Shown here piece after piece: positions 4,485 to 13,932 of a stretch of 64,000 bases of DNA. Location: the sequence record PZ445524.1; one strand, given 5' to 3'. The notes under the pieces were generated by a model. It had not been told where the DNA came from. It saw only the letters and a program-made list of their open reading frames with translations, and did no database searches. Position 1 is the stretch's first letter, and every line of letters starts with the position of its first letter. The position numbers and the translations under genes are program-made. The DNA is from a phage.

Positions 4485-6072
<1,588 letters not shown>

Positions 6073-6099
6073 AATAAAATGGGCCTTGCGGCCCACTCC

Positions 6100-8367
6100 T
6101 TAAAAGTATTTTTTAAAACTCATCATAACTTTATCATCAACATCATTATCAATCTGTGCAACAAGGTAAGATGACAGTTCTACTTCTTGTGGCGCGGATT
6201 GAACATTATCAGAATTAAGATATTCACGAATCCAAGGATATGGATGTTTAACCGGAGCATCGGTAATTGGGCATGGAAGACCACACTGTTTCATACGAGA
6301 TACAGTTAAGTAATCAATAAAGCTCCACATGCTATTTGTATTTAATCCAGGAACATCGCCATCTTTAAATAAATGAACTGCCCAATCTTTTTCTTGGCGG
6401 TTAACTTCCATGAAAATATCAACTGCTTCTTGTTCACACTCTTGAGCAATTTTAACCCATTCATCGCCATCAGTACCGGATTGAAGTTGACGAATAATAT
6501 ATTGAGTGCCTTTAAGGTGAAGCTGCTCATCACGTGCAATGAACTTCATAATCTTGGCATTACCTTCCATGATTTCCATGTTCTTATGGAAGTTAAAGGT
6601 ACCGTATGTTCGATTGAGCTCGCTAATTCTCAACCCGTTCTCTTATGAACTGCTGCATGTTACCATGCAGTCCAGACTATATCACAATCCCGGAGGGATT
6701 CTCCCCATTTCGAGTCGCTTGACCCTACGTCCGAAGACTAGTCGTTGAACCTTGCTTTGCAATTGTCGCCGTGCCATCGTTTATATGTTGATGGTGATAA
6801 ATCTTTCTTACCACAATATGGACAATTCAATTGAATTCTATTTGGATTTAATTTACATCTGTCATTATGTTTTAGATAAAATCCAGGACCTTTACCAATG
6901 TGACCACAGAAATCACATGTGATTTCTTTTTGTGCAGGATGGGTCCCGTTCTTAACCATTTCTAATGTTTTTGCTGATGTTCTTTTCTTATGGTCTTCTG
7001 ATAAGAAATGATGTGAACCGTCATTTACCCGTTTTGATTGAGTTTCTGACTGCATTTTACCACCGCAAAATACATGAGTACCTTCTTTTATAGCTGCAAT
7101 ATTGCGTTCTTTAACTTTTGCAATATGCTCAGCTTGTTGAAAATTATGTATACCTAATGCAACTCTATTTAAATTAGATTTACGCTGTATTTCACCATCT
7201 AAAAGATGAAATGTACCATTTTCTATCTTAGATTTAATAGAGGCAATATTTTTAGCTCGTACTTCAGGGATATTAAAAATCTGGATTTCTCTAGATTTTG
7301 CGGCTTTAGAAGCTAATTCAGAAATTTCTTCAGGAGAATATTTCATTCTAAGCTTTATAGCATGACAAGCCTGGTAATCTTTTTGAGCTAAATGTATATC
7401 ATAATGTTCCTGTATAGAAAGGCACATCAAATTATCTAAATCATTATTTTCACGGTTACCGTCTTTATGATGGATTTCGTATGTTCTTCCATCAGAATCT
7501 TTAGGTATAGGTCCGTTAGCATCTATCCAAATTTTTCTATAGTTCAATTGTGCATCCTCTTAAAAGTATAATCATATTTATATTATACTAATTAAAGGTG
7601 CAAGCAAAACCTTGGCTGCTAGTTTTCCATAAAGGACTTTCCAGCAATTAAAGGAGTTTTCGATAAACGTTACCGTTTAAAGGCGCATTTTACGCAAAAG
7701 ATACATAAAAACGAATAGCTTCCAATGCGTTGATTACATGGAGGCAAAGGTAAAGAGATTTCATTAAAGCACGTTTAGCTTCGGCTTCTTGTTTAATAGC
7801 TCGGTTTAAACGAAAGACGGCATCAGGAGATTCTTTAGCTAGTTCTACAAATTCTTTAGCATTTTCCCATTCACGGGTTTTAATCAGAACATCATCATAA
7901 TAACGCCCAATGGATTCAGCACGTTTCATAATAGCTTCATCTAATACAATCTCATCAAATACCTTCGATGGATCAGTATAAAGATTTCGCATGATATGTG
8001 TATATGAACGGCTGTGAATAGTTTCACTAAAAGTCCACGTAGCAACCCATGTATCAAGACTTGGGTCTGAAATTAATGACATAAGTACAGCAGATGGCGC
8101 ACGACCCTGAATGCTATCCAAAAGTGATTGATACTTCAGGTTGTTAGTAAAAATATTTTGCTGATACTGAGGAAGCTTATTAAACTGTGCAGCATCCATC
8201 ATTAAGTTTACTTCTTCCGGGCGCCAGAAAAATGATAATTGCTTTTCGGTCAAATCTTCAAAAACTTTATGGCGTTGAATGTCATAACGCGCAATACCAA
8301 GACCTGAACCAAAAAACATAGGTTCTTTTAAAACATCAACTGGATTTGTATTAAAAACTGTAGACAT
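6100..8367 (-). CDS. nrdB: ribonucleotide reductase small subunit NrdB, interrupted by a group I intron (exon1 7692..8367, exon2 6100..6602)
   Basis: Exon 1 ends FYVSFA + U; joining to 6602 restores CTFNFHKNMEIMEGNAKIM, colinear with the R2 iron-ligand region; intron 3' nt is G. Confidence 0.85.
6603..7691 (-). mobile_element. group I intron in nrdB (about 1089 nt) carrying an HNH homing endonuclease ORF
   Basis: Exon frames only join across this interval; exon 1 ends in U, intron ends in G; boundaries inferred, not folded. Confidence 0.75.
6738..7547 (-). CDS. intron-encoded HNH homing endonuclease, I-TevIII-like, full length (269 aa)
   Basis: HNH motif EIHHKDGNRENNDLDNLMCLSIQEHYDIH; C-terminal Cys clusters CDFCGH and CPYCG; start is TTG with AAGAGGA SD, no in-frame ATG. 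Confidence 0.8.
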   Translation of the reverse strand: MNYRKIWIDANGPIPKDSDGRTYEIHHKDGNRENNDLDNLMCLSIQEHYDIHLAQKDYQACHAIKLRMKYSPEEISELASKAAKSREIQIFNIPEVRAKNIASIKSKIENGTFHLLDGEIQRKSNLNRVALGIHNFQQAEHIAKVKERNIAAIKEGTHVFCGGKMQSETQSKRVNDGSHHFLSEDHKKRTSAKTLEMVKNGTHPAQKEITCDFCGHIGKGPGFYLKHNDRCKLNPNRIQLNCPYCGKKDLSPSTYKRWHGDNCKARFND

Positions 8368-8401
8368 ATTATTCTCGCTTATTATAGGTTTAAATATTTA
8401 A

Positions 8402-9205
8402 TCACATATTATGTATAAGCACTTCAGTCTGAAATGATGCACCTTTCTTTTGCTTCCTATACATGGTTTCAAAATATTCAATTTTGAAATTATTAGAAAG
8501 GGCCCAATCTTTTAAAATATAATTATTAATATCGTCCGATAGATTATTAGTGATAATAAATTTAGACTTTGACCGTTTAATTTTATCTAATAATTCTAAT
8601 TCATCCTTTTCTTCCCATCCTGAATATTTAAATTTAGTAGAAAGATAAGGCGGGTCAATGAATAAATTTTTGTTTTCAAAATCTAAATCTCTGAATGATT
8701 TATTACTAAATGTAAATCGGTGTTGTCTATTTTTAAATTCAGAAAATTTATCCTGTTGAGACTTATTAAAAGAAGTTCTGGAATACTTGGCTCTGTTGGC
8801 GAAAGCCGCGTTATAGTTCCCATTACTAGAAAATCGGATTAATGAACTGAATGAAAATAAATGTAGAACATAAAGATATAGTCCGTTTTTGGTTTTATCG
8901 TATTCTTTTGACAGATTATAAAAAGGTGCTGAATCTTTGTCATTCAAATTGAAGTCTTCAATAATTTTAACTATATCATTAATTGAAGATGATTTCATCT
9001 TTTTATACATGTCTATAAGAGGAGTATTAATATCATTACATATAACATTTCTTTGACAATTCATAGAAAATCCAAGACCGCCACAAAAAGCATCCAAAAC
9101 GGGCTTATCATCAAAGCAGTTTGAAAATTGTCTAATAAATGGCATATACTTATGCTTTGCACCTGGATATGTTATGGCAGGTAGGTCTTTCATATTATTT
9201 CTCAT
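8402..9205 (-). CDS. DNA N6-adenine methyltransferase, Dam family (alpha class)
   Basis: 267 aa; motif I DAFCGGLG near N-terminus, motif IV DPPY near residue 187; LYLYVLH and WEEKDELELL blocks resemble T4 Dam. Confidence 0.75.
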   Translation of the reverse strand: MRNNMKDLPAITYPGAKHKYMPFIRQFSNCFDDKPVLDAFCGGLGFSMNCQRNVICNDINTPLIDMYKKMKSSSINDIVKIIEDFNLNDKDSAPFYNLSKEYDKTKNGLYLYVLHLFSFSSLIRFSSNGNYNAAFANRAKYSRTSFNKSQQDKFSEFKNRQHRFTFSNKSFRDLDFENKNLFIDPPYLSTKFKYSGWEEKDELELLDKIKRSKSKFIITNNLSDDINNYILKDWALSNNFKIEYFETMYRKQKKGASFQTEVLIHNM

Positions 9206-9237: not shown

Positions 9238-11502
9238 TCATAATTTACAGGATGAACAATCTTCAGCTTTTGGAGTTTCTATTTCATAATCATCAGTACC
9301 AGAACCATCACGGGTATTATGATAATAGAAATTTTTAATGCCATAATACCATCCGTATAGCATGTCATCAATCATTATTGACATTGGAACCTTTCCCTTT
9401 GGAAAAATCTGCGGGTCATAGTATGTATTCGCTGAAGCTGATTGACATACCCATTTCAGCATAATAGCTACCTGCGTAAGATAAGGTTTATTACCTTTCT
9501 TAGCTAATTTCCATGTATAATCATATAGGTCTATGTTATGCTCAATATTGGGCACGACTTGATTAAAGGAGCCCTCTTTTGATTCTTTAACAGAGACTGG
9601 TCCACGTGGAGGCTCGATGCCGTTTGTACTGTTAGAAACTTGGGAAGATGACTCACATGGCATAAGTGCTGATAATGTGCTATTACGGATGCCAAATAGC
9701 TTAAGGTCTTCCCGCAGCGACGACCAGTCACAAACGTATTTTGGAGCTGCGATTTGGTCAATCTTTTTATTGTACCAGTCGATAGGTAATTCGCCTCGAG
9801 ACCAACGAGTGTCTGAATAATATTCGCAAGGTCCTTTTTCTTTGGCGAGCTTAATGGATGCTTTAATGAGTCCATACTGTAATCTCTCAAATAGTTCATG
9901 TGTTAAATCGTTAGCATCTTCATAAGAAGCAAAGTTACTTGCCAGCCAAGCTGCATAGTTAGTAACACCTACACCAAGGTTACGACGCTTTTTAGCTTTT
10001 TCTGCTTCAGGAACTGGATATCCTTGGTAATCCAACAGATTATCAAGAGCACGAACTTGAACTTCTGCCAATTCATTAATTTTATCTTGGTCTTGCCAGT
10101 CAAAATTATCCAGTACGAAGGCAGAGAGAGTACACAACCCAATTTCAGCATCAGGACTATTCACATCATTTGTTGGAATAGCAATTTCACAGCACAAGTT
10201 ACTCTGACGAATAGGTGCCTTTTCACGAATAAACGGAGTATAGTTATTCGTATTATCAATGAACTGTACATAAATCCTTGCTGTTCCTGAACGTTCAGTC
10301 ATGAGCAATTCAAATAGTTCACGGGCTTTAATACGCTTTTTACGAATATTAGGGTCTTTTTCTGCTGCTTCGTATAATTCACGGAAACGGTCTTGGTCTT
10401 TAAAATAAGAATAATAAAGCTCTCCACCCATTTCATGCGGACTGAACAAAGTAATGTAATCGTTCTTTCCAAAACGTTCCATCATCAAATCATTCAGTTG
10501 AACGCCATAATCCATATGACGAATGCGGTTTTCTTCTACGCCTTTGTTATTTTTCAAAACGAGAAGATTTTCAACTTCCAAATGCCAAATAGGATAATAA
10601 GCAGTAGCAGCGCCGCCACGAATTCCACCCTGTGAGCATGATTTAACTGCAGTCTGAAAATGTTTCCAAAAAGGAATAACACCGGTATGGCGTACTTCAC
10701 CCATGCCAATCTTAGAACCTTCGGCACGAATCATACCAACGTTAATACCAATTCCAGCGCGTTTAGAGATATATTCAACAATTGAAGCGGAAGCCTTATT
10801 GATAGACTTCAGCGAATCACCTGCCTCAATAACAACACATGAACTAAACTGTCGAGTCGGAGTACGACAACCAGCCATAATAGGAGTTGGCAATGAAATC
10901 TGTCGAGTAGATACTGCTTCATAAAAACGAATAACATGTTTTAATCTATCAACAGGTTCATCTTGATGCAATGCCATTCCAATAGTCATAAATGCAAACT
11001 GTGGAGTTTCATAAATTTGACCAGTGGTTTTATCTTTAACTAGATATTTTTCTTTTAATTGCATCGCCCCGGAATAAGTAAATTCCATATCCCGCTCGTG
11101 CTTAATTTTTGATTCTAAAAATGTAATTTCTTCTGCTGAATATTTTGACAATAATTCAGGGTCATATTTACCTTCATTTACACAGTAAGAAATATGGTCA
11201 ATAAATGAACGTGGTTCATACTGCCCATAAACATGCTTACGAAGAGCGAACATTAAACAGCGTGCAGCTACATATTGATAATCAGGTTCTTCAACCGAAA
11301 TAGAATTCGCAGCAGCCTTAATGACAATAGTCTGAATATCATCAGTTGTCATTCCATCACGGAGATAAGATTTAATATTTTCATATAATTCATAAGGATC
11401 TACTGATGTTCCTTCAGCTGCCCAAGATAAAACTTTAATAATTTTTTGTGGGTCAAAGCTCTGAGAAACACCACTACTTTTGATAACATTAATTAATTGC
11501 AT
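9238..11502 (-). CDS. nrdA: ribonucleotide reductase large subunit
   Basis: 754 aa; class Ia RNR alpha with ATP-cone N-terminus and active-site NLCCEI; SD GAGGA. Confidence 0.95.
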   Translation of the reverse strand: MQLINVIKSSGVSQSFDPQKIIKVLSWAAEGTSVDPYELYENIKSYLRDGMTTDDIQTIVIKAAANSISVEEPDYQYVAARCLMFALRKHVYGQYEPRSFIDHISYCVNEGKYDPELLSKYSAEEITFLESKIKHERDMEFTYSGAMQLKEKYLVKDKTTGQIYETPQFAFMTIGMALHQDEPVDRLKHVIRFYEAVSTRQISLPTPIMAGCRTPTRQFSSCVVIEAGDSLKSINKASASIVEYISKRAGIGINVGMIRAEGSKIGMGEVRHTGVIPFWKHFQTAVKSCSQGGIRGGAATAYYPIWHLEVENLLVLKNNKGVEENRIRHMDYGVQLNDLMMERFGKNDYITLFSPHEMGGELYYSYFKDQDRFRELYEAAEKDPNIRKKRIKARELFELLMTERSGTARIYVQFIDNTNNYTPFIREKAPIRQSNLCCEIAIPTNDVNSPDAEIGLCTLSAFVLDNFDWQDQDKINELAEVQVRALDNLLDYQGYPVPEAEKAKKRRNLGVGVTNYAAWLASNFASYEDANDLTHELFERLQYGLIKASIKLAKEKGPCEYYSDTRWSRGELPIDWYNKKIDQIAAPKYVCDWSSLREDLKLFGIRNSTLSALMPCESSSQVSNSTNGIEPPRGPVSVKESKEGSFNQVVPNIEHNIDLYDYTWKLAKKGNKPYLTQVAIMLKWVCQSASANTYYDPQIFPKGKVPMSIMIDDMLYGWYYGIKNFYYHNTRDGSGTDDYEIETPKAEDCSSCKL

Positions 11503-12055: not shown

Positions 12056-13932
12056 TTACACCGCCATCTTTCCTTTAATAGGAGGGTGTGATACATAGTT
12101 GTTAAGAACGAAATCTTTAGGCCTAAGTTTAAGAACATATTTTAATTGTTCTTTAGTAGAAAGATATCGGAATTTATAAGGTAGACCACTTATTACCAGC
12201 TCACAAAGCTCTTTAGGTTCACGCCTCAAAATTTCTTTACATTGTTCTACGTGATTCATATAGATATGAGTATTACCACCAGAAAATATCAAATCCCCTG
12301 GAATAAGATTACACATCTTAGCTACAATATGAACTAACGTAGCATATGATGCAATATTAAACGGTAGCATTATGTTCAGATAAGGTCGTTAATCTTACCC
12401 CGGAATTATATCCAGCTGCATGTCACCATGCAGAGCAGACTATATCTCCAACTTGTTAAAGCAAGTTGTCTATCGTTTCGAGTCACTTGACCCTACTCCC
12501 CAAAGGGATAGTCGTTAGGCATTTATGTAGAACCAATTCCATTTATCAGATTTTACACGATAAGTAACTAATCCAGACGAAATTTTAAAATGTCTAGCTG
12601 CATCTGCTGCACATTCAAAAATAACCCCATCACATGAAATCTTTTTAATATTACTAGGCTTTTTACCTTTCATCTTTTCTGATATTTTAGATTTAGTTAT
12701 GTCTGAATGCTTATGATTAAAGAATGAATTATTTTCACCTGAACGATTTCTGCATTTACTACAAGTATAAGCAGAAGTTTGTATGCGAACACCGCACTTA
12801 CAAAACTTATGGGTTTCTGGATTCCAACGCCCATTTTTACTTCCGGGTTTACTGTAAAGAGCTTTCCGACCATCAGGTCCAAGTTTAAGCATCTTAGCTT
12901 TAACAGTTTTAGAACGTTTCTTAATAATTTCTTCTTTTAATGGATGCGTAGAACATGTATCACCAAACGTTGCATCAGCAATATTGTATCCATTAATTTT
13001 AGAATTAAGCTCTTTAATCCAAAAATTTTCTCGTTCAATAATCAAATCTTTCTCATATGGAATTTCTTCCAAAATAGAACATTCAAACACATTACCGTGT
13101 TTGTTAAAAGACCTCTGAAGTTTTATAGAAGAATGGCATCCTTTTTCTAAATCTTTAAAATGCCTCTTCCATCTCTTTTCAAAATCTTTAGCACTTCCTA
13201 CATATACTTTATTGTTTAAAGTATTTTTAATCTGATAAATTCCGCTTTTCATAAATACCTCTTTGAATATAGAAGTATTTATTAAAGGGCAGTCCTACAA
13301 TTTAGCACGGGATTGTCTACTAGAGAGTTTCCCCGTTTAGATAGATTACAAGTATAAGTCACCTTATACTCAGGCCTCAATTAACCCAAGAAAACATCTA
13401 CCGAACGTTGATACCACTGCAAATCCAAATAGCCATTACGAACATTAAATTGATAAAACATATGACAAGGCGGTAATGCCATCTGCTTGAGTTCAGCTGG
13501 ATTCCATGCTGAAACAATTTGACGCCTATCATTTGGCAGTTTTTTAATACGATCAATAACTTCTATAATTTGGTCTACACCACCAAAATCACGCCACTGT
13601 TTTCCATAAATTGGACCAAGTTCACCGCTATGGTATCCTAAATCTTTTGCTTGATTTTCGTAATTTTCATCCCAAACTGTTTTGCCTTGGATTAACGAAT
13701 CATGCTGAATTAATCGTAAATCATTGACATTTGTGCTTCCTGATAAAAACCATATTAACTCGGCAATGCAAGCTTTCCAGGCGAGCTTTTTAGTTGTTAC
13801 TGCAGGAAAACCTTTGGTTAAATCCCAACGCAATTTAGTACCGAACAAAGCAATTGTTCCTGTGCCTGTTCGGTCATCGGTTTCATAACCATTTTCAAAA
13901 ATGTCTTTAATTAAATCTTGGTATTGTTTCAT
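12056..13932 (-). CDS. td: thymidylate synthase, interrupted by a group I intron (exon1 13384..13932, exon2 12056..12367)
   Basis: Exon 1 ends YQRSVDVFLG, exon 2 begins LPFNIASY; spliced product 286 aa. Confidence 0.9.
12368..13383 (-). mobile_element. group I intron in td (1016 nt) carrying I-TevI
   Basis: Exon 1 ends in U (GGU), intron ends AUG with terminal G before CUA CCG; length equals the known T4 td intron. Confidence 0.85.
12515..13252 (-). CDS. intron-encoded GIY-YIG homing endonuclease I-TevI
   Basis: 245 aa; N-terminal GIYQIKNTLNNKVYVGSAKDFEKRWKRH, zinc finger CKCGVRIQTSAYTCSKC, C-terminal DNA-binding region. Confidence 0.9.
   Translation of the reverse strand: MKSGIYQIKNTLNNKVYVGSAKDFEKRWKRHFKDLEKGCHSSIKLQRSFNKHGNVFECSILEEIPYEKDLIIERENFWIKELNSKINGYNIADATFGDTCSTHPLKEEIIKKRSKTVKAKMLKLGPDGRKALYSKPGSKNGRWNPETHKFCKCGVRIQTSAYTCSKCRNRSGENNSFFNHKHSDITKSKISEKMKGKKPSNIKKISCDGVIFECAADAARHFKISSGLVTYRVKSDKWNWFYINA

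Follow-up and report, generated by a model that had tools for sequence, protein, structure and literature searches.

The closest described counterpart of the element analyzed here is the nrdB intron of phage RB3 with its endonuclease I-TevIII, said to have been discovered by Eddy and Gold in 1991 (cited in PMC2988022). The element itself lies in a 64,000-nucleotide stretch of a T4-like (Tequatrovirus) phage genome, sequence record PZ445524.1, the whole of which is called the window below, and interrupts the nrdB gene at positions 6603-7691 of the minus strand. It is, in our judgement almost certainly, the full-length, "RB3-type" version of the group I intron known from nrdB of T-even phages. 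The relevant genes are all located on the minus strand, to which the coordinates of nrdB and of the features within its intron refer throughout.

I-TevIII of RB3 has been characterized by Robbins et al. 2007 (PMC1865063): the enzyme binds the intronless nrdB allele as a dimer through two zinc fingers, and homing of the RB3 intron occurs in 4.3% of recipients, as opposed to less than 0.1% with a T4 donor. The substitutions H26A, H27A, N39A and H48A abolish cleavage, while binding is kept; C211/C214 and C242/C245 are part of the two CX2CX12-13HX3C zinc fingers, required for DNA binding (PMC1865063). The nrdB intron of T4 is described as self-splicing (PMC2988022, PMC2790892), and depends entirely on MobE, acting in trans, for its mobility (PMC2790892). 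As regards the endonucleases of the T4 introns, a mechanism based on a hairpin burying the Shine-Dalgarno (SD) sequence has been described, the middle and late promoters of the three intron open reading frames (ORFs) have been mapped by primer extension, and an operator role has been proposed, not demonstrated, for I-TevIII (PMC2988022).

The window shares with RB3 (GenBank KM606994 / AY262130) the interrupted gene, the insertion site, the ribozyme and a 269-aa ORF starting at TTG, the two DNAs being 98.1% identical over 1301 nt. The few changes in the RNA fall in the loop of P8 and in P9, where one compensatory and one G-C/G·U change are found; the RB3 genome record features two extra A residues, for an intron of 1091 nt against 1089 in the window. 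With T4 (NC_000866, T4p230/T4p231) the likeness is even closer outside the ORF, where the introns differ by a single base in the 3' strand of P6, G in the window and A in T4, RB3 carrying the same base as the window; splice sites and promoter/SD region are identical. Within the ORF, in contrast, T4 lacks 491 nt, corresponding to positions 6993-7483 of the window and to codons 22-185, H-N-H motif included; since this figure is not a multiple of 3, the frame is shifted and the motif is gone. The resulting T4 intron is 598 nt long, and GenBank labels its product as "defective DNA endonuclease... deletion in proximal half", in keeping with the statement, made in a preliminary description of the window, that the T4 ORF is truncated and defunct. 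At the protein level, the copy of phage S16 has diverged, I-TevIII being reduced there to 88.8% identity.

Splice junction and ribozyme core

The two nrdB exons, delimited on the basis of the ORF list, of a check on the splice product and of an alignment with Escherichia coli R2, are located at 7692-8367 (exon 1, 676 nt) and 6100-6602 (exon 2, 503 nt, stop codon included), and are separated by 1089 nt of IA-type group I intron, beginning with A and ending with G. Exon 1 ends with ...UUUUGCGU (in longer form, ...UCUUUUGCGU), its final 4 nt being the 5' strand of P1. The intron starts with AAAAUGCGCC and ends with ...CAUACG (longer, ...CGAACAUACG), its terminal G being at 6603, while exon 2 starts with GUACCUUUAAC. 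Joining 7692 to 6602 produces 1179 nt, in frame, encoding a 392-aa NrdB and containing ...RFYVSFACTFNFHKNMEIMEGN... (longer, ...AIRFYVSFACTFNFHKNMEIMEGNAKIM...), with residues ...FYVSFAC and TFNF... on the two sides of the junction.

Both protein and nucleotide comparisons indicate that excision restores an intact host gene. In a phmmer search against PDB chains, residues 3-388 of the joined product align with the R2 protein (NrdB) of E. coli (1piy among other chains, E 7.6e-127). The alignment crosses the junction without gaps (query ...FYVSFACTFNFHKNMEIMEGNAKI...), the closest one being of one residue, seven positions downstream, and the junction Cys, encoded by U plus GU, is a conserved residue. 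At the nucleotide level, a 240-nt junction sequence, spliced in silico, gave one ungapped 240-bp match to intronless nrdB alleles, such as that of phage vB_Eco_Solly. The flanking bases are unlike at each boundary (T/A at the 5' site; G/G, followed by T, at the 3' site), so that the boundaries cannot be slid. The limits and the length assigned to the intron in the preliminary description are thus exact, and the junction proposed there, with exon 1 ending in U, the intron ending in G and a Cys codon being restored, was confirmed by the splice product and by the R2 alignment.

Helices P1 to P9.2 were placed by hand, and subsequently tested by covariation. The 5' half of the ribozyme core (7604-7691), defined by helix coordinates and pair counts, contains P2 (7664-7679), the 5' strand of P3 (7651-7656), P4 (7641-7647 with 7616-7622), P5 (7626-7636) and the 5' strand of P6 (7604-7610). 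It also contains the GCGC internal guide of P1 (7683-7686), which pairs with the GCGU of the exon, leaving a U·G at the splice site; P1 was identified by sequence reading only and is outside the pair count. The 3' half (6603-6760), defined in addition by matches to Rfam Intron_gpI and by blastn similarity to phage group I introns, contains the 3' strand of P6 (6754-6760), the 5' strand of P7 (6739-6743), P7.1 (6729-6738), P7.2 (6712-6725), the 3' strand of P3 (6701-6706), P8 (6687-6699), the 3' strand of P7 (6675-6679), P9 (6653-6670), P9.1 (6637-6650), P9.2 (6614-6633) and the terminal G (6603). A minimum free energy fold of an ORF-less mini-intron, constructed in silico and used as a guide only, gave P1, P4-P6, P7.1, P7.2, P9, P9.1 and P9.2, and missed P2; P3 and P7 are outside such a prediction, because they form a pseudoknot. 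Extra helices P7.1 and P7.2, between P7 and the 3' strand of P3, are the hallmark of subgroup IA in the classification of Michel and Westhof, and both are present in the window intron.

A test of the fold independent of T4 was provided by relatives of the 3' core detected by blastn, which are group I introns from phages and genes of quite different kinds: the Twort orf142 introns and those of a second Staphylococcus phage, a Clostridioides phage, Bacillus phage BSP21, Pseudomonas phage PAP02 and the rV5 terminase gene. Eight of these relatives score 84-104 bits against Rfam Intron_gpI (RF00028, gathering threshold 50 bits). The eight were aligned by MAFFT to the window intron, from which L6 (intron positions 97-927) had been cut in silico, for a total of nine sequences. 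The structure projected from the window, 63 pairs in all, is 92.1% paired over the nine introns and features compensatory changes, involving both sides, in 46 pairs; taking the structure from one of the aligned sequences inflates the former figure, but not the count of double changes. None of 500 shuffles matched any of the five measures used, and pairing fell to 37-44% when the 3' partners were displaced by 1-3 columns.

Helices P2, P3, P4, P5, P6, P7.2, P8 and P9 are each supported. P2 to P5 are 98-100% paired and contain compensatory changes (P3, 100%, with double changes in 6 pairs out of 6; P4, 98%; P5, 100%); P6 is 92% paired, with double changes in all of its 7 pairs, P8 93%, and P7.2 87%, with compensatory changes in 4 out of 5 pairs, while P7 is invariant. 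Pairing is weaker for the 3 bp of P7.1 (56-89% on the MAFFT alignment), and reaches 71-76% for P9.1 and P9.2 on the sequence-only alignment. Changes preserving the pairing are also found within the nrdB lineage: in P2, S16 replaces A-U by G-C and C-G by U·G, and in P9 both S16 and RB3 replace G-C by A-U. The Twort orf142, rV5 terminase, BSP21 nrd and PAP02 introns have the same P2-P9.2 architecture as the window, P7.1 and P7.2 included, along with the same J6/7-P7 (GUUCAACGACUA) and J8/7-P7' (GAUAUAGUCU) segments, and their 3' cores are 70-79% identical to it by blastn; they differ in being inserted in other host genes, mostly with an ORF-less L6.

The nrdB pre-mRNA is thus predicted to fold as a group I ribozyme, with the U·G of P1 at the 5' splice site, the P3/P7 pseudoknot, P7.1/P7.2 and P9.1/P9.2 as peripheral helices of IA type, and the terminal G; two guanosine-initiated transesterifications would then join GCGU to GUACC, producing the Cys codon UGU and the 392-aa NrdB. 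The spliced cDNA is expected to read ...TCTTTTGCGT directly followed by GTACCTTTAAC..., 1089 nt having been removed. Fold and identity with the T4 core both suggest that the window intron splices. At the insertion site, the intronless Solly allele carries synonymous changes (TTC GCA TGT vs TTT GCG TGT; Solly 200-241 vs window 7692-7711), which would weaken pairing in P1.

The I-TevIII reading frame

The intron ORF (6738-7547), delimited by the ORF list, by alignment to the RB3 protein and by Pfam, is open across all of its 269 codons, and its product is identical to RB3 I-TevIII at 267 out of 269 positions, with no gaps. Pfam HNH_3 matches residues 4-48 (E 6.1e-13, 48.6 bits, cut-off 24.8), the H-N-H motif itself corresponding to residues 26-48 (7404-7472). 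Two C-terminal CX2CX12-13HX3C clusters were found by regular expression at residues 211-231 (zinc finger 1, 6855-6917) and 242-263 (zinc finger 2, 6759-6824). Counting the TTG as codon 1, H26, H27, N39, H48, C211, C214, C242 and C245 are all present, and this fit with the published residue numbers speaks for TTG as the genuine start codon. The same codon is used in the GenBank annotation of RB3, whose 810-nt coding sequence (CDS) has equal extent, and is preceded by the SD sequence AAGAGGA (7555-7561), ending 7 nt upstream. A 269-aa ORF with intact HNH motif and Cys clusters, starting at a TTG behind a good SD, had been anticipated from the bare sequence, and these features are all borne out.

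The last codons of the ORF and its UAG stop overlap the ribozyme from the 3' strand of P6 through the first base of P7.1, P7 included, so that coding sequence and ribozyme share sequence over this stretch. A PDB sequence search with I-TevIII found no solved structure. Residues 74-114 (7206-7328) also give a marginal match to Pfam FlgM, an anti-sigma-28 factor (26.2 bits, cut-off 25), which is probably compositional, due to a helical linker, rich in Lys, Ser and Ala, that joins the H-N-H domain to the zinc fingers.

The enzyme, encoded within L6, would target intronless nrdB, and repair of the double-strand break would copy the intron into the recipient gene (homing). Judging from the experiments on RB3, the window allele is very probably competent for homing.

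Observations at variance and alternative explanations

Several observations weigh against the interpretation of this locus as an RB3-type intron able to splice and to home. P1 is only 4 bp long, and no P10 pairing was identified among the hand-placed helices. No group I match was reported by Rfam in the 2.5 kb at 6000-8500, nor in the whole 64-kb window at the gathering threshold; a 311-nt slice gave 36.3 bits over 6653-6893 (E 6e-8), still below threshold, and the covariance-model test is passed by proxy only, through an ORF-less allele. The exact 269-aa protein sequence was not found in a collection of 15 billion proteins. Its two differences from the RB3 enzyme fall close to essential residues: D23Y lies 3 residues ahead of the catalytic H26, and D246G adjoins the zinc ligand C245. 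Moreover, splicing of the window allele is inferred from its fold and from the T4 core, and cleavage from RB3.

The low Rfam score is explained by an insert of about 840 nt in L6, holding the ORF, which the model cannot span; the T4 nrdB intron scores just as low (35.7 bits). In the window, coding sequence was aligned by the model as P1-P5, misplacing the 5' half, and the Rfam alignment was therefore rejected as a structure. In contrast, the naturally ORF-less intron of phage PD112 (304 nt) scores 68.6 bits (E 4.8e-17), and on this allele the model places P1-P9 as in the hand-derived fold. The covariance-model search envisaged in the preliminary description thus gave a divided answer, the window copy remaining below the threshold and the ORF-less allele exceeding it. 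The assignment of the insert to group I in that description is upheld by the latter score, by the identity with the T4 core and by the covariation-supported P2-P9.2 fold.

The best surviving alternative, although an unlikely one, is that the intron splices, but carries an endonuclease inactive or weakened as in T4; it would then be unable to home by itself, and persist only by vertical descent or co-conversion. The two substitutions, near H26/H27 and beside C245, do set the window enzyme apart from the only biochemically tested protein, and neither the ORF list nor Pfam revealed in the window a mobE gene, which mobilizes the defunct T4 intron in trans, so that with a dead I-TevIII there would be no obvious driver. 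The frame is, however, open over its whole length with all eight essential residues intact, and the full-length ORF is kept in 88 phage records, at 88.8-99.3% identity, suggesting selection or recent spread. The substitutions themselves recur: Y23 and G246 are both found in phage TadeuszReichstein, and the diverged S16 copy shares Y23. Both would accordingly appear to be natural variants, rather than lesions, and D23 looks derived in RB3, because Y23 is shared by a copy only 88.8% identical.

It is highly improbable that no intron exists, and that nrdB is split or disrupted by a free-standing HNH cassette, its halves being translated separately or the gene being dead: several automatic annotations do list two nrdB CDSs plus a "hypothetical protein", and Rfam finds nothing above threshold on the window, but the ORF is flanked by a complete group I core, strongly supported by covariation and near-identical to the self-splicing T4 intron, the ORF-less allele passes the Rfam threshold, the boundaries fit the U/terminal-G rule, a conserved Cys codon being re-formed between them, and exon 2, where it meets the junction, lacks both a start codon and an SD of its own. 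The split-gene interpretation was rejected for its conflict with the group I core, the T4 identity and the restored nrdB, and an assembly artefact was rejected because near-identical copies exist in dozens of independent genomes.

Expression, distribution and neighboring features

The region between the ribozyme 5' half and the ORF contains elements that might control expression of the endonuclease. A predicted hairpin at 7551-7602, where CACCUUU pairs with AAGAGG(A)UG, would sequester the SD; its calculated free energy is -14.9 kcal/mol (z -3.85), and none of 200 shuffles was equally stable. A match to the T4-type late-promoter consensus, TATAAATA, is positioned inside the hairpin, at 7575-7582. 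In long early and middle transcripts the hairpin would bury the SD of the I-TevIII ORF, while late transcripts starting from TATAAATA, past the 5' arm of the hairpin, would have the SD freed and the ORF translatable.

A 20-mer resembling the homing site, UUUUGCUUGCACCUUUAAUU (7590-7609), lies just upstream of the late promoter, where it overlaps both P6 (5' strand) and the SD-burying hairpin (5' arm). It is identical in 17 out of 20 positions to the sequence spanning the insertion point (TTTTGCGT and GTACCTTTAACT on its two sides), a figure reached by none of 1000 shuffles. The 20-mer is a putative operator, through which I-TevIII might autorepress. To our knowledge, autorepression through an operator has been demonstrated only for I-TevI among the endonucleases, and for I-TevIII it has merely been proposed. 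On the strength of this likeness we tentatively suggest, with somewhat more doubt than confidence, that the site is a real I-TevIII operator and that the intact enzyme represses its own late transcription; a phage with intact I-TevIII and no mobE would offer a clean natural background for testing the idea.

A megablast search of 6500-7800 against 50,697 phage records matched 773 of them, the best matches being Escherichia phages AV119 and AV120 (99.8%) and TadeuszReichstein (99.7%), with RB3 and its siblings at 98.1%. Most of the about 700 T4-like nrdB genes in the collection are intronless. By tblastn, full-length I-TevIII was found in the 88 records mentioned above, while about 30 contain T4-type or other truncations. 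The version known from laboratory T4 is thus exceptional, and Tequatrovirus-like phages widely carry the nrdB intron in its intact and presumably mobile form. The configuration described here, intron plus I-TevIII, is already published and common, and nothing in it is conceptually new; the main value of the analysis lies in the correct annotation of deposited genomes. Public annotations are inconsistent, nrdB being often reported as two CDSs rather than as a join, and the ORF as a "hypothetical protein". In TadeuszReichstein (1874-2563) the ORF is annotated from 120 nt downstream of the TTG, with loss of the first H-N-H histidines.

PD112 (vB_vPM_PD112, NC_054928) carries the same intron as the window at the same insertion site, with a core differing by a few bases and an "AT" missing within the late-promoter box. 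Its deletion, of 785 nt, is bounded exactly by two ACAATTG repeats. The window retains both of these 7-bp direct repeats (7545-7551 and 6760-6766), which bracket the I-TevIII ORF. The ORF-less 304-nt nrdB intron occurs both in PD112 (positions 420-725) and in CE1, with the repeats as deletion end-points, and a deletion so bounded appears to be a natural route to loss of the ORF.

In the window, nrdB is flanked on one side by denA (about 5662-6072) and rnlA (4485-5645) and on the other by nrdA (9238-11502), all on the minus strand. The gap between nrdA and nrdB contains mobE and nrdB.1 in T4 and mobE in RB3, and is empty in TadeuszReichstein. In the window, it is filled by an ORF for a 267-aa D12-class N6-adenine DNA methyltransferase (8402-9205, minus strand; Pfam PF02086, E 1.4e-23), with a DPPY motif. 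DNA similar to this gene was found in only 8 of the 50,697 phage records (best 96.7%). With only about 34% identity to T4 Dam, the protein is a second, distinct methylase, located in an insertion hot spot for endonucleases.

The thymidylate synthase gene, td, is also split, with exon ORFs at 13381-13932 and 12056-12370. The insert, at about 12371-13380 on the minus strand, includes an ORF (12515-13252, minus strand) for a 245-aa GIY-YIG protein, similar to I-TevI. It would be the counterpart of the group I intron of T4 td, and was not reported by Rfam at the gathering threshold in the search of the whole 64-kb window. Finally, a weak match to the Rfam L20_leader family (22.3 bits, E 0.24), found likewise in T4, is located at 6065-6191 on the minus strand. 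The match can be traced to a GC-rich hairpin, GUGGGCCGCAAGGCCCAU, with U-rich sequence behind it, in the interval separating the nrdB stop codon from denA; the element is probably a terminator-like or stabilizing hairpin, rather than an L20 leader.

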